DNA of 64,000 bases from a virus (IMGVR_UViG_3300032277_002183:147-64146); one strand, 5' to 3'; numbered from the stretch's first letter, positions 6,721-18,309 are shown. Notes: generated by a model from the sequence alone, not told the origin. Translations and numbers: made by a program.

Positions 6721-7180
6721 CGAACAAAAGGTAACAGAATTCCTTTCAAAGGTAGATGACTGGATTGAAGACAGAAATGCAGATCTGTCTAAACAGAATG
6801 AAGAGGTGGAGTCTATAATGGCGCTAACCTCAGAACAAGTTAGATCTTTAGGGCAGGAGAAGTGCTTATCCTACTCCTTTATTCTTTTTGCTCATGCAGA
6901 ATACCTGCAAGGTGTCTATAATAAAGAGAAGACTGTTGTTGAATTTTGTGACGATAGTATTTGGTTTATGATTGGAGATAAGCTACATAACTACGGCGGC
7001 CAATATTCAAAATGGCAAGAAAGATATTATTCTGCGGTGAAAGAAAACCCAATGGCGACAGAATTAAATAGATTAAAAATTATGTCACAAGCCAGACTGA
7101 ATAGATTGACTGGAAAAGTCGATAACATTAAAAGGATGGCGACATTGTTACAAGACTTAGGCAAGAGAAGAGGTTACTAA
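6695..7180 (+). CDS. helical protein, possible UvsY-like recombination mediator
   Basis: ~160-aa all-helical ORF near the recombinase. The UvsY role is inferred from size and context only. An alternative TTG start at 6713 follows a GGAG. Confidence 0.4.
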   Translation: MNGELNLTNEQKVTEFLSKVDDWIEDRNADLSKQNEEVESIMALTSEQVRSLGQEKCLSYSFILFAHAEYLQGVYNKEKTVVEFCDDSIWFMIGDKLHNYGGQYSKWQERYYSAVKENPMATELNRLKIMSQARLNRLTGKVDNIKRMATLLQDLGKRRGY

Positions 7181-7623
7181 TGTCGATAATTGACACAGCA
7201 AAAGAGCTACTTAGAAAAGGTATCGCTCTTAATGACGAAGATTTAATAAACATGGCAAACTCTCTATTAGAGGTGGATGTTGAAACCCAAGCGCCTGCTC
7301 AACCTGAAGAAAAACAGGTCGTGGAAAAGGAAAAGACACCACCTCAGAGAGTCGTTGCCGATGACTTTGCAGTAAATAGAGAGTCTCTTGAAAATTCTAG
7401 AACTCCCGTAAGTGATATAAGGGCAAGAGAGAACCAGTTTGTTGACGATAGGACTGAACATATGGATATAGAAACTCCTGAGTTCACTCCAACCGAAAGA
7501 AGAAATCCTAGCAAGTTATTTCCCCAGAAGTGTCAACAGTGCAATGAAACTTTCAAAGTGCATGAGTCCCACAGAAGAGAATGGTTCGTATGTGATGCCT
7601 GTTTGGTTGGGAGGAGAAGATAA
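7180..7623 (+). CDS. hypothetical protein with C-terminal zinc ribbon
   Basis: CQQC...CDAC near the C-terminus. Confidence 0.65.
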   Translation: MSIIDTAKELLRKGIALNDEDLINMANSLLEVDVETQAPAQPEEKQVVEKEKTPPQRVVADDFAVNRESLENSRTPVSDIRARENQFVDDRTEHMDIETPEFTPTERRNPSKLFPQKCQQCNETFKVHESHRREWFVCDACLVGRRR

Positions 7624-8045
7624 TGATAAAAGTCAAGTTGCTTAGCGAAGAAGCTACTGTACCGACTAAGGCTCATAAGTCTGATGCTGGTTGGGACTTA
7701 TATGCTTCCAATACATCACAGCCAGTTTATCCACATAAAAGAAGATTAATCTCTACAGATATATCTATAGCGATTCCTGACGGTTACTGTGGTCTTATTT
7801 GGCCAAGATCTGGCTTGTCAGTTAAAAAGGGAATTGATGTTCTTGCTGGTGTAATCGACTCTGGGTACAGAGGTGAAATAAAAGTCTGTTTACTTAACAC
7901 ATCTGATACGCTGGCACACATTCATCCGGGCGATAGGATCGCTCAATTAATCATACAAAAAGTTGAAGATATTGAATTTTTAGAGGTCGATAAACTTGAC
8001 GATAGTGATCGTGGAGATGGCGGCTTCGGAAGTAGCGGGAGATAA
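7623..8045 (+). CDS. dut: trimeric dUTPase
   Basis: DAGWDL, RSGLS, GVIDSGYRGEI, GDRIAQL, RGDGGFGSSG (motifs I-V). Confidence 0.97.
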   Translation: MIKVKLLSEEATVPTKAHKSDAGWDLYASNTSQPVYPHKRRLISTDISIAIPDGYCGLIWPRSGLSVKKGIDVLAGVIDSGYRGEIKVCLLNTSDTLAHIHPGDRIAQLIIQKVEDIEFLEVDKLDDSDRGDGGFGSSGR

Positions 8046-8047
8046 AT

Positions 8048-8395
8048 ATGCCTTTTAATAGGTTGCAACAAATTATTGCCGAAAGAAAAGCGGCAGCGAA
8101 TAAAGAAGAAGTTATTGAAGATGCCTCGACTCCACAAGAGGATAGGACTAGAGGAGAAACTAGACGAGAAGCAAAGGAAGATCGCAAAGAGGATCGAAAA
8201 GAAAAAGTTGAACAGAAGCGAAACTACCGATTAGAGAAGATCAATGCAGTAAAAGAGAAGATTTATGCTGTCGCATCTAAGAGAAAGTGGTTGTTTTTTA
8301 TTATAGTTGGTGCTATAGTAGCATACCTAGTTATCTTCAAAGGTGGTTTTGGAGGTGGTGATATTCTAACTAAGATCAAAGGATTTTTTGGATAA
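8048..8395 (+). CDS. membrane protein with charged N-terminal domain
   Basis: E/K/R-rich region, then TM helix WLFFIIVGAIVAYLVIF and an amphipathic tail. Confidence 0.7.
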   Translation: MPFNRLQQIIAERKAAANKEEVIEDASTPQEDRTRGETRREAKEDRKEDRKEKVEQKRNYRLEKINAVKEKIYAVASKRKWLFFIIVGAIVAYLVIFKGGFGGGDILTKIKGFFG

Positions 8396-8493
8396 TGAAA
8401 AAGACATTAACTTTAGAATGGAAAGATTTTCTACTTGGTGTATTTTTAAGCGCTACCATTTGTATGGGGTTCTATATCTTTAGAGGAATGTAA
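8395..8493 (+). CDS. small membrane peptide (32 aa; below the ORF-track cutoff)
   Basis: TAATG overlap with the upstream gene; MKKTLTLEWKDFLLGVFLSATICMGFYIFRGM; its stop directly abuts the next ATG. Confidence 0.6.
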   Translation: MKKTLTLEWKDFLLGVFLSATICMGFYIFRGM

Positions 8494-8661
8494 ATGAATT
8501 TAGGCATAACAGCTATCGCTGTTTCCGCTGCAATGTATGTAATTGTATGCGGATCATGTATAAAGCAAAAAGATTACCCACATGCACTCATGTGGTTTTC
8601 TTATGCTATGGCCAATATGGGGTTATTATGGTACGAATTAAACAAAATGAAAATAAATTAG
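8494..8661 (+). CDS. small two-TM membrane protein (55 aa; below the ORF-track cutoff)
   Basis: MNLGITAIAVSAAMYVIVCGSCIKQKDYPHALMWFSYAMANMGLLWYELNKMKIN; starts right after the previous stop. Confidence 0.65.
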   Translation: MNLGITAIAVSAAMYVIVCGSCIKQKDYPHALMWFSYAMANMGLLWYELNKMKIN

Positions 8662-10097
8662 AAGACGCAGCGGCTGAATCTGCTGTGCTTGCTGGTCTAT
8701 GTCAATATGGAATTGACGCAATGCTTGAGGTTGAGTATATCAGCACCGAGTATTTTATGGATCAGACCAACCAAGTTATCTTTGACTGCCTGAAGAAGTC
8801 TCTTGAGTCAACACAGAAGGCAGAACTTTCTTCGCTACTATCTGCTGCAAACCAGCTCAATCATTATGATGTAATCAAAGAAGAGGCTGGATACTTAAGA
8901 TACTTATTTGACACTCCGATTTTACAAGATAACATTCCTGTCAACGGAGCAAAATTAGCGAAGCTGAAGATAGCTCGTGATGTTAAGAAGACTTTGGCTA
9001 AATGCTCACTGGAGGTTGACAAAATTAATGGTGATGAAGACATCACTGAAATCATCTCTTTGATTGAGACCCCCATTTTAGATGCGACATCCAAAATATA
9101 TCAAGGCTCAGACAACAAGCCCAAGATCATTGGTGAAGATGTCAGCGAATATGTTGAGTTCTTAAAAGAGAATCAAAATGAAATGTTGGGCATCAGCACT
9201 GGCTTTCCTCGTTTCGATGAGGCTATCGGCGGAGGAATCCGTAGAAAGTGCGTAGATCTTGTCGCTGCAAGACCTAAAGTCGGTAAGTCGATGTTTGGTG
9301 ATGCTGTAGCGATGCATGTCTCCAGAAATCTAAACATACCAGTCTTGATGCTAGATACAGAAATGTCTAAAGAGGATCATCTTAATCGCATGCTTGCGAA
9401 TGTCAGTGGTGTTGAAATAAACAAGCTGGCGAGCGGCAAGTTCGCTAATAATGATCTAGACATTGAGAAAGTAGAGAAAGCCGCTGAAGAGCTTCAGAAT
9501 ATCCCATATCATTATGTTAGTATTGCTGGTCAGCCTTTTGAAAACATACTTGCGATTATGAGAAAATGGATTCATCAAGAAGTTGGGTTTGATGAGAATG
9601 GCAGAACAAATGATTGTATTATTATTTATGACTATTTGAAATTAATGAACTCCGCTAGTATTTCTAATTCTATGCAGGAGTTTCAAGTGTTGGGCTTTCA
9701 GATCACACAACTACATAACTTCTGTGTGAAGCATGATGTGCCCTGTTTGAGTTTTGTGCAGCTAAATAGAGATGGTATTACTAAGGAGTCTACAGATGTC
9801 GTTAGTGGGTCTGATAGGCTTATATGGTTATGTACTAGCTTCACAATATTTAAGATGAAGTCAGATGAAGAGATGGCGGATGACGGCGAAGATCATGGCA
9901 ATAGAAAGCTAGTACCGATTGTAGCTCGTCATGGAGCCGGATTAGATGACGGAGACTATATAAATATGAACATGTTTGGTAAATTTGGTAAACTTGTAGA
10001 AGGGCAAACAAGAAATGAAGCCCATAAAACAAGTAAAATTAAGGATGATGGTTTTGAACAAACGACTAACGAATCAACAGATCTTAGCAGTGTCTAA
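8628..10097 (+). CDS. dnaB: replicative DNA helicase DnaB
   Basis: AAAESAVLAGL N-domain, ISTGFPRFD, AARPKVGKS, LDTEM, IYDYLKL, FVQLNR. Start moved from 8547 to 8628 because the earlier part overlaps the 55-aa ORF. Confidence 0.92.
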   Translation: MVRIKQNENKLEDAAAESAVLAGLCQYGIDAMLEVEYISTEYFMDQTNQVIFDCLKKSLESTQKAELSSLLSAANQLNHYDVIKEEAGYLRYLFDTPILQDNIPVNGAKLAKLKIARDVKKTLAKCSLEVDKINGDEDITEIISLIETPILDATSKIYQGSDNKPKIIGEDVSEYVEFLKENQNEMLGISTGFPRFDEAIGGGIRRKCVDLVAARPKVGKSMFGDAVAMHVSRNLNIPVLMLDTEMSKEDHLNRMLANVSGVEINKLASGKFANNDLDIEKVEKAAEELQNIPYHYVSIAGQPFENILAIMRKWIHQEVGFDENGRTNDCIIIYDYLKLMNSASISNSMQEFQVLGFQITQLHNFCVKHDVPCLSFVQLNRDGITKESTDVVSGSDRLIWLCTSFTIFKMKSDEEMADDGEDHGNRKLVPIVARHGAGLDDGDYINMNMFGKFGKLVEGQTRNEAHKTSKIKDDGFEQTTNESTDLSSV

Positions 10098-11100
10098 CCA
10101 GCTCTCGACTAGAGTTGAAGACTTGCTAAAATACTTTGAAATTGATTACATTGAGTACCCAAACAGGTTGGCCTTCCCGTGTCCAATTCATGGTGGCGAT
10201 AATCCCGAAGGCTGTTCTATATTTACGGACGGGGTAAGCTCTAAAGGTAATTGGAATTGCTGGACTGCTAATTGTCATGAAGACTATGGAAAGAATACTT
10301 TTGGTTTTGTCAGAGGCTTGCTAACAAATAGAAAAGCCCGAGAAGTTGGAGTGTTGGAAACATTCTATTTTTGTAGTAAGTTCTTGGGATTAGATCCAGA
10401 AACTATAGAATTTGAACAGCCAGTAGAAAACTATAGCGTCGTAAAGATACTTGAGGTTTTTCAAAGAGAGCCCGTGCGACACGAACAGTCTGTAGATAGA
10501 GAGACAATAGTTGACAAGCTTGACATACCGTCTAAATATTATATTGATCGAGGATATAAATCAGAAACTCTAGAGAAATTTGATATCGGCATGTGCATAG
10601 GTAGGGGCAAGCCAATGTCTGGCCGTGTTGTGGTTCCGATTTATGATGAAAATAATAAGTATGTAGCATGTATAGGTCGGGCTGTTTACCAGAACATGAA
10701 ACCAAAATGGCTGCATAGCAAAGGGTTCAAGAAAAGTTCATATTTATATGGGTACAATGTGGCTAAAGATGATATAATGAAAAAAGGAACTATTGTTTTA
10801 GTAGAAGGTCAGGGTGATGTATGGAGAATGCATGAGGCTGGCGTTACCAATACGGTCGGCATTTTTGGAGCCAGTCTAAGTGAGGATCAGCTTATTCTAA
10901 TAGAAAGAAGCGGAGCCAGAAACGTAGTTATACTAACAGACTACGATGAGGCTGGTCAAAAAGCAGCAAAGCAAATACTAAAAAGATGCGGAAGACGATT
11001 CAATTACTACCGACCAGAAATCGACCAGAAGGACGTGGGAGATATGACAGTCGAACAAATACAAGATCAAATTATTAATAAGTTACAGGGAGTTTTATAG
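10045..11100 (+). CDS. DNA primase (CHC2-like zinc finger + TOPRIM)
   Basis: CPIH...WNCWTANC zinc finger; VLVEGQGDV, ILTDYDEAG and KDVGD TOPRIM motifs; start uncertain (10015-10048). Confidence 0.9.
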   Translation: MMVLNKRLTNQQILAVSNQLSTRVEDLLKYFEIDYIEYPNRLAFPCPIHGGDNPEGCSIFTDGVSSKGNWNCWTANCHEDYGKNTFGFVRGLLTNRKAREVGVLETFYFCSKFLGLDPETIEFEQPVENYSVVKILEVFQREPVRHEQSVDRETIVDKLDIPSKYYIDRGYKSETLEKFDIGMCIGRGKPMSGRVVVPIYDENNKYVACIGRAVYQNMKPKWLHSKGFKKSSYLYGYNVAKDDIMKKGTIVLVEGQGDVWRMHEAGVTNTVGIFGASLSEDQLILIERSGARNVVILTDYDEAGQKAAKQILKRCGRRFNYYRPEIDQKDVGDMTVEQIQDQIINKLQGVL

Positions 11101-11935: not shown

Positions 11936-12949
11936 ATGTTAGTTACATACATAAGAAGTTCTAGTTATAATAATTTTGAGTACTGCCAGATGCAATATTT
12001 TATGACCTATGTTTTAGGTCATCAAACCACTTCAGGCAAGAAAGCTCAATTGGGAACGGTTGTACATAAGGTTATGGAAGTTTTGGCTGGATGTAAGAAA
12101 TTGCACCAAGACGGTCAAGAGCTATTGCTTAAGGATGACGCTATCGGAGAGGTCGAGTTTACCAAGCGTAGACTCGGAACAAAGAAATTTGTAAACGAAA
12201 TCCTTAAGCGTAGCTACGACCATTACACTGTACCATGCTCTCATCACTATACTAATGCAGACTATAAATTCTGTGATAAGACGACATGGGAAGCCCTAAC
12301 TTATGATGACGGCAACTTTGACCCAAGAAAACGTAACATTGTTGCGGCTGAGCCTCAATTTGATATTGCCATCGAAGAAGACTGGGCTAAATATGAATAT
12401 GATATGCCAGACGGAACAAAGGCAGAAGGCCAACTTGCTATCAAGGGTACGATTGACTTGGTAACAGAAGTATCTGATGGAGTAATTGAAGTTATCGACT
12501 GGAAGACAGGACGCCGACTTAACTGGGCTACCGGAGAGGAGAAGACTTATGAAAAGCTATGTAAAGATCCGCAGTTAATGTTGTATCACTATGCAATTTC
12601 TAAGCTTTTCCCTCAATATGAAGACGCAATTATGTCGATATATTTCATTAGAGATGGTGGCCCGTTTAGTATCTGTTTTGAAGAAAGTGACAGACAGAAG
12701 TTTTTGGGAATGCTAAAGGATAGATTTGAGGAAATCAAGAAGACGACTCGTCCAAGAATGCTATCTAGAAATCAGGCTCACTGGAAATGTACTAAGTTAT
12801 GTGACTTCTGTAAGACGGATTGGCCCGGAACTGATGAAAGCATGTGCCGACATGTCAGTAATCACTTAGACCAATTTGGTATGCTAGACACAATACAAAA
12901 CTGCACAAGAGAAGATTTCGATGTTGGATATTATGAGGCTCCCGGATAA
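11936..12949 (+). CDS. Cas4/AddB-like PD-(D/E)XK exonuclease with probable Fe-S cluster
   Basis: SSY...YCQMQY, G-x-x-VH, KGTIDLV, IDWKTG, QLMLY, C-terminal CTKLCDFC. Confidence 0.85.
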   Translation: MLVTYIRSSSYNNFEYCQMQYFMTYVLGHQTTSGKKAQLGTVVHKVMEVLAGCKKLHQDGQELLLKDDAIGEVEFTKRRLGTKKFVNEILKRSYDHYTVPCSHHYTNADYKFCDKTTWEALTYDDGNFDPRKRNIVAAEPQFDIAIEEDWAKYEYDMPDGTKAEGQLAIKGTIDLVTEVSDGVIEVIDWKTGRRLNWATGEEKTYEKLCKDPQLMLYHYAISKLFPQYEDAIMSIYFIRDGGPFSICFEESDRQKFLGMLKDRFEEIKKTTRPRMLSRNQAHWKCTKLCDFCKTDWPGTDESMCRHVSNHLDQFGMLDTIQNCTREDFDVGYYEAPG

Positions 12950-13464
12950 TGATTGAAGTAAAAATTACAGAAGAAATGAAAAAAAGCGCATGGGCAAAGT
13001 CTAGAGAGATGGGAGTCATAAAAAACTCCATCATGAAAGGCGACGGAAATATTGCTGGATTTCTAGGAGAAGAGGTTGCAAATGTAGTTATAGGTGGTAC
13101 AATTAATAACACTTATGATTATGACTTGGTTGCACAAGATGGAACTAAGTATGACGTAAAAACAAAGAGATGTACTTCTCCACCTAAACCTTATTATGAT
13201 TGTTCAGTCGCCAACTTTAATACAAAGCAAAAGTGCGACCGATATGTGTTTGTCAGGATTGAGAATAAGAACAAAAGATGGGGGAGAGCGTGGGTCTTGG
13301 GTTGGTTGACTCACGATGATTATTTTAAGAAAGCTCGCAAGCTAACAAAGGGTCAGAAAGATCCCTCCAATGGCTTTGTTGTTAGAGCAGATTGTCATAA
13401 TGTTGCTATTTCAGAATTGAATAAATTTAAGGATTGTCATGAATTGGATTCCACTAAACAATAA
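12949..13464 (+). CDS. restriction-endonuclease-fold (PD-(D/E)XK) protein
   Basis: GFLGEEV...YDL...YDVKTK. Confidence 0.55.
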   Translation: MIEVKITEEMKKSAWAKSREMGVIKNSIMKGDGNIAGFLGEEVANVVIGGTINNTYDYDLVAQDGTKYDVKTKRCTSPPKPYYDCSVANFNTKQKCDRYVFVRIENKNKRWGRAWVLGWLTHDDYFKKARKLTKGQKDPSNGFVVRADCHNVAISELNKFKDCHELDSTKQ

Positions 13465-15019
13465 AACTCACTTTAGTCTGCAAAGAGGCTACTCAAAGCC
13501 GGAACAACTTGTAGCCAAGTGTAAGAAGTTTGGCTACAAATCTTGTGCGATCACAGATATAAATACTATTTCTGGTGCTGTCGCCTTTTATAAAACTTGC
13601 AAGAAGAATGATATCAAACCTATTATTGGTTGCACATTTGAGTTTGAAAGTCATAAGCCAATGACACTATTAGCCAAGAACAAACAGGGTTGGTTTGATC
13701 TTATTGACTTAGTTTCTAAGAAAAACTCTTACAGTGATGACGTTGTCAACAAGCTTTTAAAGTCTCATAGCGAGAATCTAATATGTATTGACGATCTAAA
13801 GCAGCAGCCTAGTTATTATGCTGATACAAAAGATGCAGAATTACATCGAATACTTCTTTGCTCTGGAATGAAAACCACAATGGGCAAAGTTAAAGATAGA
13901 CTCAAGCAAGATGGTTTCAAAAAGTTAAAAGGCTTTTTTAGTTCAGACAAGTATTATATGATCTCGCCAGAAGAGGCGTCAAATCAATACACTGAGGATG
14001 TTATAACAAAAGCGTTTGAGATTTCTGAACAATGTGAGGAGTATGATATCTTAGGCAAGCCAATGCTTCCTAAGTTTGACTGTCCTGACGACTACACTGA
14101 AGATGAATATTTGAAACAGTTATGTAGGGACGGGTGGCGCAGTCTACTTGCTGAAACAGGAAAAATAGATAATGAAGACAGGAAACAAGAGTATCTTGAT
14201 AGAATCAAGAATGAAATGGATGTTATTTTTGATGCAGACTTGTCTGGTTATTTTCTAATCGTGCAGGACATTGTAAACCATGTTAGAGAACAGGGCTGGT
14301 TACCGGGCCCCGGAAGAGGTTCTGCTGCAGGATGTTTGATTTCTTATCTGATTGGGATTACAGAAATTGATCCCATTGAATATGATTTGATTTTTGAAAG
14401 ATTTTATAATGCAGGGCGTAACACTGAAGATCATGTATCCTTACCTGATATTGATGTTGACGTTCCAGCAGAAAAGCGAGATGAGGTTATTGGATATATT
14501 AAATCAAAGTATGGAGAAGATAATGTATCTCAGATGTTAACCTTTAATAAGTTACAGGGTCGAGCGGCATTAAAAGAAATAATGCGTATCACAAATGCTG
14601 TTTCTTTCGCTGAGATGAATGATATAACAAAGAATATTCCCAATGAAGCAGATGTCTCCGACCTAATTGAAGAAAGCGGTGAAAAATCACTAATAAAATG
14701 GACACTTACTTATCAGCCTAGCGATCTAGGAAAATGGTGTAAGGTTAATCAAGAAGGAGATTTAATCGGGCCTTTGGCAGAAATTTTTGAGCAAGCTATT
14801 GACATCGAGGGTACAATTAAATCACAGGGCAAACATGCGGCGGGAGTTATTATATCGGCTAATAAATTGAGAGAGGTTTGTCCTATGGTTCAAGATAGGC
14901 ACAAGAACCTTGTGGCTGGATTTGAAATGGGAGACCTTGAAGATCAAGGACATGTTAAATTTGATATTTTAGGCATCGACCTACTAAGTAAAATTATGGA
15001 GATTAAAGATGAGCACTAA
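13439..15019 (+). CDS. dnaE: DNA polymerase III alpha, N-terminal half (degenerate PHP + palm/thumb)
   Basis: AITD, KPIIG, YFLIVQDIV, GPGRGSAAGCLISYLIGIT, FERF, PDIDVD, GKHAAGVII, KFDILG; ends at a stop shortly after the third catalytic Asp. Confidence 0.92.
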   Translation: MNWIPLNNKTHFSLQRGYSKPEQLVAKCKKFGYKSCAITDINTISGAVAFYKTCKKNDIKPIIGCTFEFESHKPMTLLAKNKQGWFDLIDLVSKKNSYSDDVVNKLLKSHSENLICIDDLKQQPSYYADTKDAELHRILLCSGMKTTMGKVKDRLKQDGFKKLKGFFSSDKYYMISPEEASNQYTEDVITKAFEISEQCEEYDILGKPMLPKFDCPDDYTEDEYLKQLCRDGWRSLLAETGKIDNEDRKQEYLDRIKNEMDVIFDADLSGYFLIVQDIVNHVREQGWLPGPGRGSAAGCLISYLIGITEIDPIEYDLIFERFYNAGRNTEDHVSLPDIDVDVPAEKRDEVIGYIKSKYGEDNVSQMLTFNKLQGRAALKEIMRITNAVSFAEMNDITKNIPNEADVSDLIEESGEKSLIKWTLTYQPSDLGKWCKVNQEGDLIGPLAEIFEQAIDIEGTIKSQGKHAAGVIISANKLREVCPMVQDRHKNLVAGFEMGDLEDQGHVKFDILGIDLLSKIMEIKDEH

Positions 15020-15236
15020 AGAAGATTATAAGTCAGTTCTGTTTTCTGGCTGCGCGATTGAATATAAAAATGTTAGCCTTTGTGATCTAAGGCATTTTCT
15101 TCCTCAGTTCAGAGGTAGACTCAATGGCGTTTACCAAGTACATTCAGACAATAAAAAGAATTTGTATAGTAAGCTGTTTTATGACATTAATGAAGCAGTT
15201 GATAAATTTATTGAATTAAGAGGTGTTGTAAGATGA
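15009..15236 (+). CDS. small hypothetical protein within the polymerase locus
   Basis: 75 aa; overlaps the dnaE-N stop and the exonuclease start (ATGA). Confidence 0.65.
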   Translation: MSTKEDYKSVLFSGCAIEYKNVSLCDLRHFLPQFRGRLNGVYQVHSDNKKNLYSKLFYDINEAVDKFIELRGVVR

Positions 15237-15922
15237 ATTACAGAGATATAATTGTTTTTGACTTTGAAACAGGGTCTAGAAATCCACACAAGACACAACC
15301 GACACAAGTTGCCGCTATTGCTTTGCATGGACGCAAACTAACAATTCAGCCCAATGGTATTTTCAATAGCGAGATTAGACCTATTCTTGACGACAAGAAA
15401 GCGATTGAGGCTGGTTTTGATCCTCTAGAAGAAGAGGCACTGAAGATTACTGGTAAGACCAGAGAAGCTTTAGCAAAAGCTCCACTACCAAAGACTGTAT
15501 GGAAGAAGTTTGAAGATTTTTGCATGCAATTTAATTTCAAGAAAAGCTCTTACACTGCTCCTATTGCTGCAGGCTACAATATCATTGGCTTTGACTTACC
15601 AATCGTTCAGCGCATGTGTGACATGCACGGGACTACCGACTCAAGAGGTCGCCAGACTGTATTCAATCCTATCTTTAAGTTAGACTTGATGGACATGGTT
15701 TTCTCTTGGACTGAGAACAATAAAGATTTCAAGAGTCTTAGCATGGACTTTCTGCGAGACTATATGGGTTTTCCAGAAGAGAGCAAGCAGAACGCTCACG
15801 ATGCGTTACAGGACGTTAAAGACACGGCTAATATATTGATTAAATTTTTGAAGTTCCAGCGGAACATTTCACAGAAGACTAAATTTGAAAAGGCGTTTGC
15901 GAATGGAGAATTCTACGTTTAA
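15233..15922 (+). CDS. DEDDh 3'-5' exonuclease (DnaQ/epsilon-like)
   Basis: VFDFETG (ExoI), AGYNIIGFD (ExoII), HDALQD (ExoIII). Confidence 0.9.
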   Translation: MNYRDIIVFDFETGSRNPHKTQPTQVAAIALHGRKLTIQPNGIFNSEIRPILDDKKAIEAGFDPLEEEALKITGKTREALAKAPLPKTVWKKFEDFCMQFNFKKSSYTAPIAAGYNIIGFDLPIVQRMCDMHGTTDSRGRQTVFNPIFKLDLMDMVFSWTENNKDFKSLSMDFLRDYMGFPEESKQNAHDALQDVKDTANILIKFLKFQRNISQKTKFEKAFANGEFYV

Positions 15923-17465
15923 TATTGATGACTATAATGACTCTAATGTTTGGGATTTAATTTGTGAAGGACAAACAAAAGGTGTCTTTCAGTTAGAGTC
16001 GCAACTTGGTAGATCTTGGGCTAAAAGAGTTCAGCCTAGAAGTATCGAAGAACTAGCTGCTTTAATCTCTTTGATTAGGCCCGGATGTCTGAAGGCTTTC
16101 ACTGAAGGCAAATCAATGACACAGCATTATGTTGACCGTAAAGCTGGTATTGATGAGGTTAAGTATTTGCATCAAAATCTTGAACCAATTTTGAAAGAAA
16201 CTTATGGCGTTCTTGTTTATCAGGAACAGTCCATGAAAATCGCTCAACAGTTGGCTGGGTTTGATCTTAAAGAAGCAGACAGTCTTCGTAAAGCTATTGG
16301 TAAAAAGAAAGCTGGTCTTATGAATCAGATCAAAGGTTCTTTTATTCAAGGAGCTATTTCTATCGGTGGATTAGAAAAAGAAGCAGCAGAGGAAATCTTT
16401 GGTTGGATTGAGAAGTCTAATAGGTATGCCTTTAATAAATCTCACGCTGTTTCTTATGCTGTTAATGCTTACCGAAGCGCATATTGTAAGGTACACCGCA
16501 AGATGGAGTTCTTTGAAGCTTATCTTGGTCATGCAGATAGAAAGCCAGATCCCCACACAGAGGTAAGGGAATTGGTATCAGATGCCAAACTTTACGACAT
16601 AGAAGTCATGCCACCAAGACTTGGAAAGTTTTTTAATAACTTCACTATATCTGATGAGAAGATATATTTCGGAGTGAATAACGTTAAAGGTGTTGGCAGT
16701 TCTGAAACCGTAAAGTTGTTAGATGCCATACCAGAACTAGAAGAAAAATTGGAAAAGCCCTTTACTCACTTTTCTTGGTGTGATGTATTGTTCAATTTGG
16801 GCGCTAGGATAAACAAGACCTCAATGGAGTCCCTAATAAATGTTGGAGCCTTCAATGGAACTAAAAACCGCATGCATCGAAATCAGATGCTTTATGAATA
16901 CAAGAGCTACAAAGATTTATCTGCCAGAGAGAGATCATGGTTAGAAGAAAATTATGATCCAACCCATACGTTTGTGGAGTCTTTAGATAATATGATAAAT
17001 AATCTTAAGATTACCTCTCGCAGACTTGTAAAGGTTTTTGATTTGAGAAATGTTGTAGAGTCTCCTCCTTTTGAGTTAAATGATCACCCTGAACAAATCG
17101 CAGACTTAGAAATAAAGTTTTTAGGAACAGCTCTAAGTTATTCAAAAACCGATGCGGTAGAAAGTTCTTTAGTAAATTCTACATGTAAAGAAATAGCTCA
17201 AGGCAAAACAGGAAGCGTCAATCTTGCTGTTCATATTAATGCTTTGCGTGAGTATAAAACTAAGAACGGTAAAAATCCCGGACAGATAATGGCGTTTATG
17301 TCTGTTGAAGATTCGACAGCGTGTCTGGACTCTGCAATAGTGTTCCCAGATGCTTACGAAGAGAACAAGCAACTTCTATATGAGGGTAATACCGTCATTG
17401 TGATGGGTCAGGTTTCTAAGAAAAAAGACACTAGTTTGATAATAAACAAAGTGTCTCAAGCCTAG
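15903..17465 (+). CDS. dnaE: DNA polymerase III alpha, C-terminal half (fingers, HhH, OB-fold)
   Basis: GVFQLES, LIRPG, ETYGVLVYQEQ, ADSLRKAIGKK, YAFNKSHAVSY, NVKGVG HhH, MAFMSVED OB-fold. Confidence 0.92.
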   Translation: MENSTFNIDDYNDSNVWDLICEGQTKGVFQLESQLGRSWAKRVQPRSIEELAALISLIRPGCLKAFTEGKSMTQHYVDRKAGIDEVKYLHQNLEPILKETYGVLVYQEQSMKIAQQLAGFDLKEADSLRKAIGKKKAGLMNQIKGSFIQGAISIGGLEKEAAEEIFGWIEKSNRYAFNKSHAVSYAVNAYRSAYCKVHRKMEFFEAYLGHADRKPDPHTEVRELVSDAKLYDIEVMPPRLGKFFNNFTISDEKIYFGVNNVKGVGSSETVKLLDAIPELEEKLEKPFTHFSWCDVLFNLGARINKTSMESLINVGAFNGTKNRMHRNQMLYEYKSYKDLSARERSWLEENYDPTHTFVESLDNMINNLKITSRRLVKVFDLRNVVESPPFELNDHPEQIADLEIKFLGTALSYSKTDAVESSLVNSTCKEIAQGKTGSVNLAVHINALREYKTKNGKNPGQIMAFMSVEDSTACLDSAIVFPDAYEENKQLLYEGNTVIVMGQVSKKKDTSLIINKVSQA

Positions 17466-17501
17466 CTTGTAGTTAATATATAGTGTATTTGGAGTATTTT
17501 T

Positions 17502-17840
17502 ATGAATAATTGTAATTTTGTAGGTAGACTAACAGCAGATCCGGTCATCAAAGATGTTGGCTCAACTCAGCTGGCAACGTTTTCGTTAGCTATCGAAAAG
17601 CATAGAAAAGATAAGAACGGTAATAAGATTAAACGTGTTGACTTCTTTGATTTTTCTGCTTGGGATAGTGGAGCAACAACAATTCACAAGTTGTGCAAAA
17701 AGGGCGATATGATTGCTGTTTCTACTATAGCCAGACAGGAAAAATGGAATGACTCAAACGGTCAAGCAAGACAAAAGGTTACATTCAGGGTTCAAAATTT
17801 TAGAGTGTTTAAAGACAGACAAGATGATGAAGGAGAATAA
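17502..17840 (+). CDS. ssb: single-stranded DNA-binding protein
   Basis: NFVGRLTADP, FSLA, FFDFSAW, KKGD, W-x-D-x-x-GQ; short acidic tail. Confidence 0.92.
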   Translation: MNNCNFVGRLTADPVIKDVGSTQLATFSLAIEKHRKDKNGNKIKRVDFFDFSAWDSGATTIHKLCKKGDMIAVSTIARQEKWNDSNGQARQKVTFRVQNFRVFKDRQDDEGE

Positions 17841-18309
17841 TTGCATTTCCATAGATGATAATTTTGATATTATAATTTCTTTGGTTGTGCAGTTTGGCGG
17901 TCACGCAAAGTCTTTTGAATTTGAAGATTTGTTACAGGTCGCATTTGTTGGTTATTTTAATGCTATTACGAGTTTTGATGAAAATATAGGGCCTCTTAGA
18001 CCATATGTCTTTTCTTCGGTAAAGAACCATCTTAATAGGTTCCTAAGAAAAGAGTTAAGATGGCAAAACAATAATGTGACTAATTCTACTGTTTCAATAA
18101 GCCACGAAGACAAAAGCTATGTAGATGAATTCAAGCAGATATTAGCGTCTTGTTCTAAGAGGTTACTACCTATAGAATCATTTATTCTGGAAATGAAGTC
18201 ACAGGGATTCAACAGAAAAGAAATATGTGACACACTAACATTAAGCAAAAAAGAATACTATAACTTATTCTATTCTGGGGTAGGGAAAATACAAAGATAT
18301 GAAAGCTAA
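17824..18309 (+). CDS. small sigma-70-family factor (regions 2 and 4)
   Basis: FEDLLQVAFVGYFNAITSFD...F/Y...VKNHLNRFLR (region 2) and GFNRKEICDTL (region 4 HTH). Confidence 0.7.
   Translation: MMKENNCISIDDNFDIIISLVVQFGGHAKSFEFEDLLQVAFVGYFNAITSFDENIGPLRPYVFSSVKNHLNRFLRKELRWQNNNVTNSTVSISHEDKSYVDEFKQILASCSKRLLPIESFILEMKSQGFNRKEICDTLTLSKKEYYNLFYSGVGKIQRYES

Follow-up and report, generated by a model that had tools for sequence, protein, structure and literature searches.

The window examined here, a 64,000-nucleotide stretch (positions 147 to 64,146) of the viral contig IMGVR_UViG_3300032277_002183, contains a gene for the alpha subunit of DNA polymerase III (dnaE) that is present as two neighboring genes, dnaE-N and dnaE-C, with a small open reading frame (ORF), orf75, and a gene for a DEDDh 3'-5' exonuclease lying between them. 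C-family polymerases replicate all bacterial chromosomes, and to our knowledge the cellular members are single chains, except for the cyanobacterial genes that are rejoined by inteins. We consider it probable that the window encodes a phage replicase of this family that is assembled non-covalently from two pieces. The locus is best read as a two-piece enzyme, with its DEDDh partner as a separate protein, because the split is intein-free, because the genes are under purifying selection, and because the split gene is the sole recognizable polymerase of the relative G001. According to this reading, the N-piece and the C-piece would associate without covalent joining. The palm with its catalytic site and the thumb would come from the N-piece, together with a PHP domain that serves as an inactive scaffold; this piece ends on what is the first fingers helix of one-piece enzymes. 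The C-piece would contribute what remains of the fingers, along with the HhH domain, which binds duplex DNA, and the OB domain. The terminal helix of the N-piece would probably dock into the C-piece as an assembly handle.

Two genes in place of one dnaE

The dnaE-N product matches the Pfam families PHP (E 7e-25) and DNA_pol3_alpha (PF07733, E 4e-70) and aligns with residues 11 to 563 of E. coli alpha. Its D337, D339, and D509 align with D401, D403, and D555 of the E. coli protein, so that all three catalytic aspartates are kept, and K507 is also present. The protein ends 17 residues past D509, on a short conserved helix (LLSKIMEI...). The dnaE-C product matches DNA_pol3_finger (PF17657, E 2e-47), HHH_6 (E 3e-9), and, weakly, OB, and it aligns with residues 592 to 889 of E. 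coli alpha and 651 to 950 of Taq alpha; its motifs YQEQ, GKKK, and FNKSH are intact. The match to PF17657 begins at profile position 26, compared with position 6 in the one-piece relative P0003, and therefore the N-piece carries the first fingers helix. The break site is the palm/fingers linker. The dnaE-N product covers positions 206 to 567 of NCBIfam PRK05673 and 245 to 611 of phrog_405, and dnaE-C covers positions 588 to 1058 (of 1146) and 626 to 1065 of the same two profiles, which leaves about 20 linker positions, so that the two together amount to one DnaE minus its tau-binding end; each half scores under the NCBIfam cut-offs for the full-length protein. The palm, which is Pol-beta-like, is that of a DnaE-type polymerase, and the fingers, HhH, and OB domains follow in the expected order, but on two polypeptides instead of a single one. 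An earlier note on this DNA had proposed the split, the two halves with their coordinates, and the retention of the catalytic aspartates, and the ORFs, the Pfam matches, and the alignment with E. coli alpha bear all of this out.

The PHP domain is present in dnaE-N, but its metal site is not. When the nine ligands of Mycobacterium tuberculosis DnaE1 (PMC5636811) were mapped via the relative L052, none of the nine positions was kept in the window, the replacements being N, K, R, I, T, P, L, P, and Y, and the earlier note was correct in suspecting that the usual ligands were missing. A stretch QMLYEY in dnaE-C was considered as a beta-clamp-binding motif and dropped, its conservation across relatives fitting a helix after the HhH domain; by eye, it presumably corresponds to that helix and not to the E. 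coli QADMF site. In the deep C-pieces L050, L052, L057, and L058 there is an additional cysteine-rich stretch (CGC...C..C) in the first 45 or so residues, which may bind metal, to go by its cysteines, and which is absent from the window's subclade.

It is most improbable, in our estimation, that the halves are rejoined into an ordinary alpha chain after transcription or translation, whether by intron splicing, trans-splicing, translational bypass, or protein trans-splicing. Split-intein DnaE is well known, and the clade relatives L046, L070, and P0002 use inteins elsewhere, which gives the idea some standing, but neither half in the window has a Hint or intein match in Pfam, although the same search, serving as a positive control, finds Hint/Intein_splicing in L046, P0002, P0013, P0053, and P0070. 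The termini leave only about 20 residues for a linker. A cmscan search with Rfam (E<=1, positions 12900 to 17900) identified no intron or ribozyme, the single match being a chance small RNA match inside the gene for the single-stranded DNA-binding protein (SSB), and the 884 nt between the halves are wholly protein-coding, consisting of two genes under purifying selection. In addition, the halves are in different frames (dnaE-N in frame 2, with its stop at 15017-15019; dnaE-C in frame 0, restarting at 15903), and in relatives they are 0.7 to 3.5 kb apart, with an opposite-strand gene among the intervening sequence. The locus thus has the hallmarks neither of a split-intein fractured gene nor of an intron-interrupted gene. 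The expectation of the earlier note that the split would be free of inteins, that the gap would hold no intron-like sequence but only the overlapping orf75 and exonuclease genes, and that the break would differ from the cyanobacterial split-intein site holds in each respect: Y175-AFNKSH is uninterrupted, and the break is about 190 residues upstream of it.

A different possibility is that the two products act independently, the N-piece as a minimal polymerase, for example, and the C-piece as a DNA-binding or accessory factor. The whole nucleotidyl-transfer center is in the N-piece, and for jumbo phages it has been proposed that minimal Pol III alpha modules are split between genes lying far apart (PMC7824862). 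We nevertheless regard independence as quite improbable, since the YQEQ, GKKK, and FNKSH motifs of the fingers, which contact the incoming nucleotide and the template, are all in the C-piece and are conserved, since the two genes never occur apart and change at comparable rates, and since lineages flip between fused and split forms (see below), which implies that the two states are equivalent.

Selection on the halves and recurrence of the layout

All four genes are under strong purifying selection. When compared with relatives of 78 to 99% protein identity, the ratio of nonsynonymous to synonymous substitution rates (dN/dS) is 0.012 to 0.032 for dnaE-N, at most 0.03 for the exonuclease, 0.007 to 0.07 for dnaE-C, and 0.03 to 0.05 for orf75, which has one outlier of 0.36 at negligible divergence. 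The relative G001, a genome of 144,965 bp that is 94% complete and has an N-piece 92% identical to that of the window, contains one PF07733 match, and neither a family A nor a family B polymerase nor a second Pol III alpha. Among the results that, according to the earlier note, would undo its proposal were a dN/dS near 1 and a full-length dnaE elsewhere; selection is far from neutral, and in G001 the split gene is the sole recognizable polymerase.

The layout is not confined to the window, and the note's suggestion to look for the same split point elsewhere proved fruitful. Ninety related viral loci were examined, of which 78 cover the junction, and 69 of these have the N-piece, variable cargo, the exonuclease, and the C-piece, with N-piece identities of 42 to 100%. 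Two loci (L070 and L071) are unbroken at the palm/fingers site and have the exonuclease upstream, and the remaining seven, which are distant (<=38% identity), are unbroken and have no related exonuclease nearby. This recurrence in 69 viral contigs that are independent of one another makes chance and misassembly very unlikely explanations. The N-pieces end 11 to 17 residues after the motif KFD[IV]LG[IL], and the C-pieces start 10 to 45 residues before TKG[VC]FQLE. In a search of 1.84 billion representatives of 50%-identity protein clusters, of the 150 strongest hits (E<=1e-102), 116 or more end 19 to 42 residues from the start of KFD[IV]LG[IL], 27 are half-length, and seven are one-piece. A 90%-identity collection with sequences from JGI, ENA, Tara, and Logan adds 7824 or more relatives of half length at E<=1e-30; where they have a name, it is "DNA polymerase-3 subunit alpha" or "PHP domain-containing protein". 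The split clade is a very large group of uncultured, mostly marine phages. When the 4-kb region was compared with 50,697 phage records by megablast, nothing was returned, and a tblastn of the N-piece against phage records reached at best 33% identity. In a set of one genome per bacterial or archaeal species there was no relative above 34% identity, with no evidence of a prophage and no clue to the host.

Selection, wide conservation, and the sole polymerase of G001 together make a pseudogene, an artefact, or another phage polymerase very unlikely. More specifically, it is hard to credit that the split gene is a decaying remnant in a phage replicated by host Pol III. Such decay would fit the fully degenerate PHP active site of the subclade, and the relatives showed neither a clamp gene nor a clamp-loader gene. 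Against it stand the dN/dS values of both halves, the intact catalytic residues, the fact that both reading frames are uninterrupted across the 69 loci, even at 42% identity, as well as among thousands of metagenomic proteins, and the place of the gene within a full replication module with DnaB, DnaG, and SSB.

The relationship between fused and split forms was explored with trees of 143 N-parts (FastTree) and of 52 (IQ-TREE). In both, the seven one-piece forms make up three groups nested within the split clade, one of which is sister to the group of the window (support 99 and 96), and at least three to four changes of state between fused and split are needed. Monophyly of the split forms is rejected by the approximately unbiased (AU) test at p=0.022, for a group that was defined after the tree was seen. 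With the distant one-piece enzymes as outgroup, the most economical account of these trees would be one old split followed by several re-fusions, though there may instead have been several independent splits. In the case of the sister lineage L070 and L071, located via the one-piece representative P0003, an orf75-like gene and the exonuclease gene are followed by a dnaE in which the palm/fingers linker is continuous, and the break comes further on, at a split intein with a Vsr-like endonuclease gene. Because the cassette lies upstream of an unbroken dnaE in these two loci, and because of the repeated flips, the data do not fix the direction of insertion. The earlier note had the exonuclease "inserted at the break", and it was right about the location between the halves, but the direction of events that this wording implies goes beyond the data.

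The exonuclease, orf75, and the gap between the halves

The exonuclease has a Pfam RNase_T/DEDDh match (E 3e-11), and its motifs ExoI (D10, E12), ExoII (D121), and ExoIII (H189, D194) are invariant in 19 homologues. The AlphaFold2 (AF2) model has a mean predicted local distance difference test score (pLDDT) of 88.9, and Foldseek matches it to ExoI, RNase T, the PolC exonuclease, and DnaQ domains at E values of 1e-8 to 6e-10; CRN-4 and the exonuclease domain of DinG are also similar, and all are matched about equally. The protein is therefore a DEDDh superfamily member, with the motifs on an RNase H-like fold. It is the best conserved of the four proteins, being 100% identical where the N-piece is 94% identical, and 89 to 93% where the N-piece is 78%. 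In its last 15 or so residues (KFEKAF...) the motif [KR]F[KE]x[ASC]F is kept even in the deepest relatives, a conservation that suggests the C-terminal tail is a binding peptide.

The exonuclease encoded between the halves would most likely act as an epsilon-like proofreading subunit, a role that we infer, with less confidence than the two-piece enzyme itself, from the fact that it is constantly linked to dnaE, from an active site that is intact, and from the absence of every PHP ligand in the subclade. In the deep split members L050, L052, and L058, with N-pieces of 606 to 658 aa, eight of the nine PHP ligands are kept, with His at the ninth (Cys) position, and therefore the split predates the decay of the PHP site. 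Because these members keep both a PHP site and the exonuclease, the latter need not be the proofreader, or not the only one, and its distribution indicates that it is not simply a substitute for a dead PHP domain.

Several observations weigh against a two-piece replicase with an epsilon-like partner. Binding between the N- and C-pieces, polymerase activity, and proofreading are inferred from the sequence. The source contig is about 40% complete (CheckV), dnaE-C lacks the tau-binding C terminus that cellular alpha has, five relatives yielded no beta-clamp gene, nor was a clamp-loader gene seen in relatives, and a host polymerase could contribute to replication. The seemingly competent PHP site of L050, L052, and L058 occurs alongside the exonuclease, and the fold of the exonuclease, a generic DEDDh enzyme, fits ExoI and RNase T just as well as it fits DnaQ. 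Finally, orthology to epsilon (DnaQ) is not established, since the top NCBIfam epsilon model gives E 3e-6 and 27 bits against a cut-off of 245, and phmmer against the PDB returns no chain at E<=0.1.

The gap itself is variable among relatives, where the distance from N-piece to C-piece is 683 to 3511 nt and unrelated cargo reaches about 2.7 kb (Table 1). The gap of L048, like that of L017, has a T5orf172/MUG113 gene. In the window it contains orf75 and the exonuclease gene with no homing endonuclease gene, and a homing-endonuclease origin of the break is possible. It is on this variability that an alternative view of the exonuclease draws, namely that the halves reconstitute a polymerase while the exonuclease and orf75 are unrelated cargo in a permissive gap, for example a nuclease for recombination or for attack on host DNA. 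A gap that accepts UDP-glucose dehydrogenase, sugar epimerases, an FkbM methyltransferase, uracil-DNA glycosylase (UDG), and homing endonucleases is consistent with this, as are the generic fold of the exonuclease, the deep members with an intact PHP site, and the cultured phage phiT1 (see below), whose dnaE has this break point but no exonuclease gene between its halves. The exonuclease, unlike other cargo, is present in 69 of 69 split loci and also beside the unbroken dnaE of L070. None of the other three proteins is as well conserved, and its tail suggests a binding peptide, so that we consider the cargo view unlikely, if the most serious of the competing accounts.

Within the window, the four genes overlap by 11 nt (dnaE-N/orf75), 4 nt (orf75/exonuclease), and 20 nt (exonuclease/dnaE-C). 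The orf75 ATG sits 11 nt inside the 3' end of dnaE-N, the orf75/exonuclease junction is an ATGA stop/start, and dnaE-C has an alternative TTG start at 15885. The four would probably be co-translated. Because relatives carry unrelated cargo in the gap, this tight translational coupling is a feature of the window and not a requirement of the layout; the earlier note's picture of one stoichiometric, coupled operon describes the window well but does not extend to the relatives.

The orf75 product, which would have an accessory role, has 16 invariant columns over 16 homologues (37 to 87% identity), and its AF2 model (pLDDT 81) consists of a helix, four strands, and a helix. It is present in the window's subclade and a sister lineage and absent from other split subclades, and because several split subclades are without it, the split does not require it. 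Pfam, PHROGs, and NCBIfam give no match to orf75, and Pfam at E<=10 on the 16 homologues returns noise only. Foldseek finds no match at E<=0.001, with ESM Atlas scores of at most 0.83, at chance level, and the top VIA-align match, YkuJ, has a Z of 6.5, within the background range. The proposals that orf75 is theta-like, or that it is an AP2/integrase-type DNA-binding remnant of a homing endonuclease, found no support. Theta is an all-helical bundle, and orf75, being predicted as alpha/beta, appears dissimilar to E. coli theta.

A wider proposal, which we offer tentatively and at less than even weight, takes the palm/fingers linker to be a natural, reversible break or landing site in a replicase that would be an obligate hetero-oligomer of N-piece, C-piece, exonuclease, and sometimes orf75, with the exonuclease co-assembling at or near the break. 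According to this proposal, lineages would have switched several times between having the cassette inside the gene and having it upstream of a whole gene, and the gap would be a protected, co-expressed slot open to mobile and metabolic cargo.

Table 1. Coordinates of replication genes in the window and of gap or exonuclease loci in other viral sequences
Feature	Coordinates	Strand	Remarks
DnaB-type helicase	8547-10097	+	Pfam DnaB_C/DnaB
DnaG-type primase	10015-11100	+	Pfam Toprim/DNAG_N
171-aa conserved ORF	12949-13464	+	3' end overlaps dnaE-N start by 26 nt
dnaE-N, 526 aa	13439-15019	+	relic PHP, palm, thumb; Pfam PHP and PF07733
orf75, 75 aa	15009-15236	+	small alpha/beta protein, no family assignment
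DEDDh 3'-5' exonuclease, 229 aa	15233-15922	+	Pfam RNase_T (PF00929)
dnaE-C, 520 aa	15903-17465 (from ATG)	+	fingers minus first helix, HhH, OB; Pfam PF17657
SSB	17502-17840	+	Pfam SSB E 1e-17; directly 3' of dnaE-C
L017 gap	7569-9054		UDP-glucose dehydrogenase and T5orf172/MUG113 gene
L022 gap	6841-9042		three ORFs, sugar-nucleotide-enzyme-like by eye alone
L043 gap	8488-9204		FkbM methyltransferase between exonuclease and C-piece
L052 gap	7908-8778		UDG-family gene (by eye only)
L057 gap	7560-10227		UDG-family genes and opposite-strand LAGLIDADG endonuclease
L069 (Bacteroides phage DAC16, MT074137.1)	144190-146514		exonuclease-homologue locus

The contig from which the window derives is an IMG/VR viral contig of 64,146 bp, nearly all of which is within the window. 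The split gene is part of a plus-strand replication module at 8.5 to 18.3 kb, in which a DnaB-type helicase, a DnaG-type primase, a deoxynucleoside monophosphate (dNMP) kinase, a PD-(D/E)XK exonuclease, and the 171-aa ORF are followed by dnaE-N, orf75, the DEDDh exonuclease, dnaE-C, SSB, and a sigma-like ORF. The SSB gene also follows dnaE-C in relatives. The sigma-like ORF (17749-18309) resembles sigma-70 region 2 and, as listed, overlaps the end of SSB by about 90 nt, and for this reason its true start is probably further downstream. Homologues of the 171-aa ORF (66 to 100% identity) lie upstream of dnaE-N in relatives; it has no Pfam, PHROG, or NCBIfam match, and by eye it has a D...D/E-x-K pattern (YDYDL...YDVKTK) recalling PD-(D/E)XK nucleases. 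A 164-aa ORF in the L057 gap resembles it, again by eye. Among the relatives, N-pieces of about 1000 aa (P0013, P0053, P0083, P0089, P0090, and others) contain full inteins with LAGLIDADG in the PHP or palm regions, and the 762-aa N-piece of P0107 is fused at its C-terminal end to a circularly permuted YpsA/SLOG domain. In a tblastn of the exonuclease against cultured phages, matches were found only in six Bacteroides phages of the DAC16 group (26 to 27% identity; genomes of 166,827 to 179,283 bp), where the homologues are unannotated "hypothetical proteins". These phages were rejected as cases of the same layout, the exonuclease gene adjoining a terminase-like gene and not dnaE.

Relation to known split and multisubunit enzymes

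Well-known broken dnaE genes are those joined by split inteins, in cyanobacteria and in the metagenomic "fractured genes" that include dnaE (PMC2677866; Dassa et al. 2009). The fractured-gene layout, an N-intein, a Vsr-like endonuclease gene, and a C-intein, is found among the relatives L046, L070, P0002, and P0070. Split-intein pieces of this kind are ligated by protein trans-splicing at or near FNKSH, and in L046 and L070 the intein is at FNK|SH, a few residues off the cyanobacterial site. In L046 (8238-11127) and L070 (6001-10687) it is the fingers part of dnaE, downstream of the palm/fingers linker, that is fractured in this way. The N-extein ends in ...YAFNK in L046 and ...YSFNR in L070, the intein begins with CLDP..., and the L046 C-extein resumes with SHSVAYA, placing its junction at FNK|SH. 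The DnaE of L046 is, on the evidence of its genes, encoded in three pieces by two different solutions. The window resembles a fractured dnaE in having two pieces, but it is without Hint domains and is broken in the palm/fingers linker.

The same linker is broken in a cultured Bacillaceae phage, the Rossellomorea phage phiT1 (L096; PV767480.1, 9714-12996), which has gp20 (573 aa), gp19 (49 aa), and gp18 (469 aa), with both gp20 and gp18 annotated as "DNA polymerase III subunit alpha". The gp20 protein ends 20 residues past KFDLLG, and gp18 starts 25 residues before GVFQLES. It differs from the window in that identity is about 30% and that one 49-aa ORF, with no exonuclease gene, occupies the gap. 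The phiT1 relatives Andromeda and vB_BpsS-36 have a one-piece dnaE, and the phiT1 break looks like an independent use of the same site. These two Bacillus phages, together with Streptomyces phage Dryad and Chryseobacterium phage MA9V-3, were considered as further split cases and proved to be one-piece throughout; the record of another candidate, Pseudomonas phage Y1, is without annotation. PHROGs includes several half-length DnaE families. Both the genes-in-pieces idea and the break site are thus already in the databases. In broad surveys of bacterial C-family polymerases an intein-free split is not mentioned, and phrase searches matched intein papers only. In the literature searched we did not find a description of the combination of a huge conserved clade, a DEDDh gene between the halves, flips between fused and split forms, and a cargo slot.

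Another intein-free, two-protein C-family module in phages is the minimal Pol III alpha proposed to be split over distant genes in group 2.2 jumbo phages (PMC7824862). The jumbo-phage version is a catalytic core only, with an NTP-binding and a Mg/template-binding subdomain, and it accompanies a family B replicase, whereas the window enzyme is full-sized apart from the tau-binding end, has adjacent halves broken between palm and fingers, and is the sole polymerase seen. The E. coli Pol III core likewise combines a degenerate PHP domain, a separate DEDDh exonuclease, and a third protein of about 75 aa, but there alpha is a single polypeptide and the subunits are encoded at unlinked loci. In Firmicutes PolC a DEDDh exonuclease also lies within the linear order of a C-family polymerase, as a fused domain in the PHP loop of one polypeptide (PMC5636811), and in the window it is instead a separate gene between palm and fingers.

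If the two-piece version works, then the catalytic palm and the fingers that bind nucleotide and template can be supplied in trans, which would provide a ready-made system for studying domain docking and the placement of a proofreading subunit, as well as a natural split site usable for engineering. For annotation, thousands of metagenomic "alpha" and "PHP" proteins are halves that could be mistaken for fragments or pseudogenes.

A precedent is found in the T4-related phages, where intein-free genes in pieces are known for PolB (43A/43B), the ribonucleotide reductase (RNR) subunit NrdA, and topoisomerase (gp39/gp60), and where the split 43A/43B of Aeromonas phage 25 co-purifies and is active, as is the split NrdA of phage Aeh1 (PMC2988022). 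As in the window, an essential replication enzyme is encoded by two adjacent genes with DNA between them and no intein or intron. In those cases (PolB in Aeromonas phages 25 and 44RR, RNR, and topoisomerase) the inserts are homing endonuclease genes or untranslated spacer, whereas the window enzyme, known from sequence alone, belongs to family C and its constant insert is a DEDDh exonuclease gene. The flips and the gap cargo would extend the genes-in-pieces idea, so far represented by PolB, RNR, and topoisomerase in T4-like phages, to a third replicative polymerase family.

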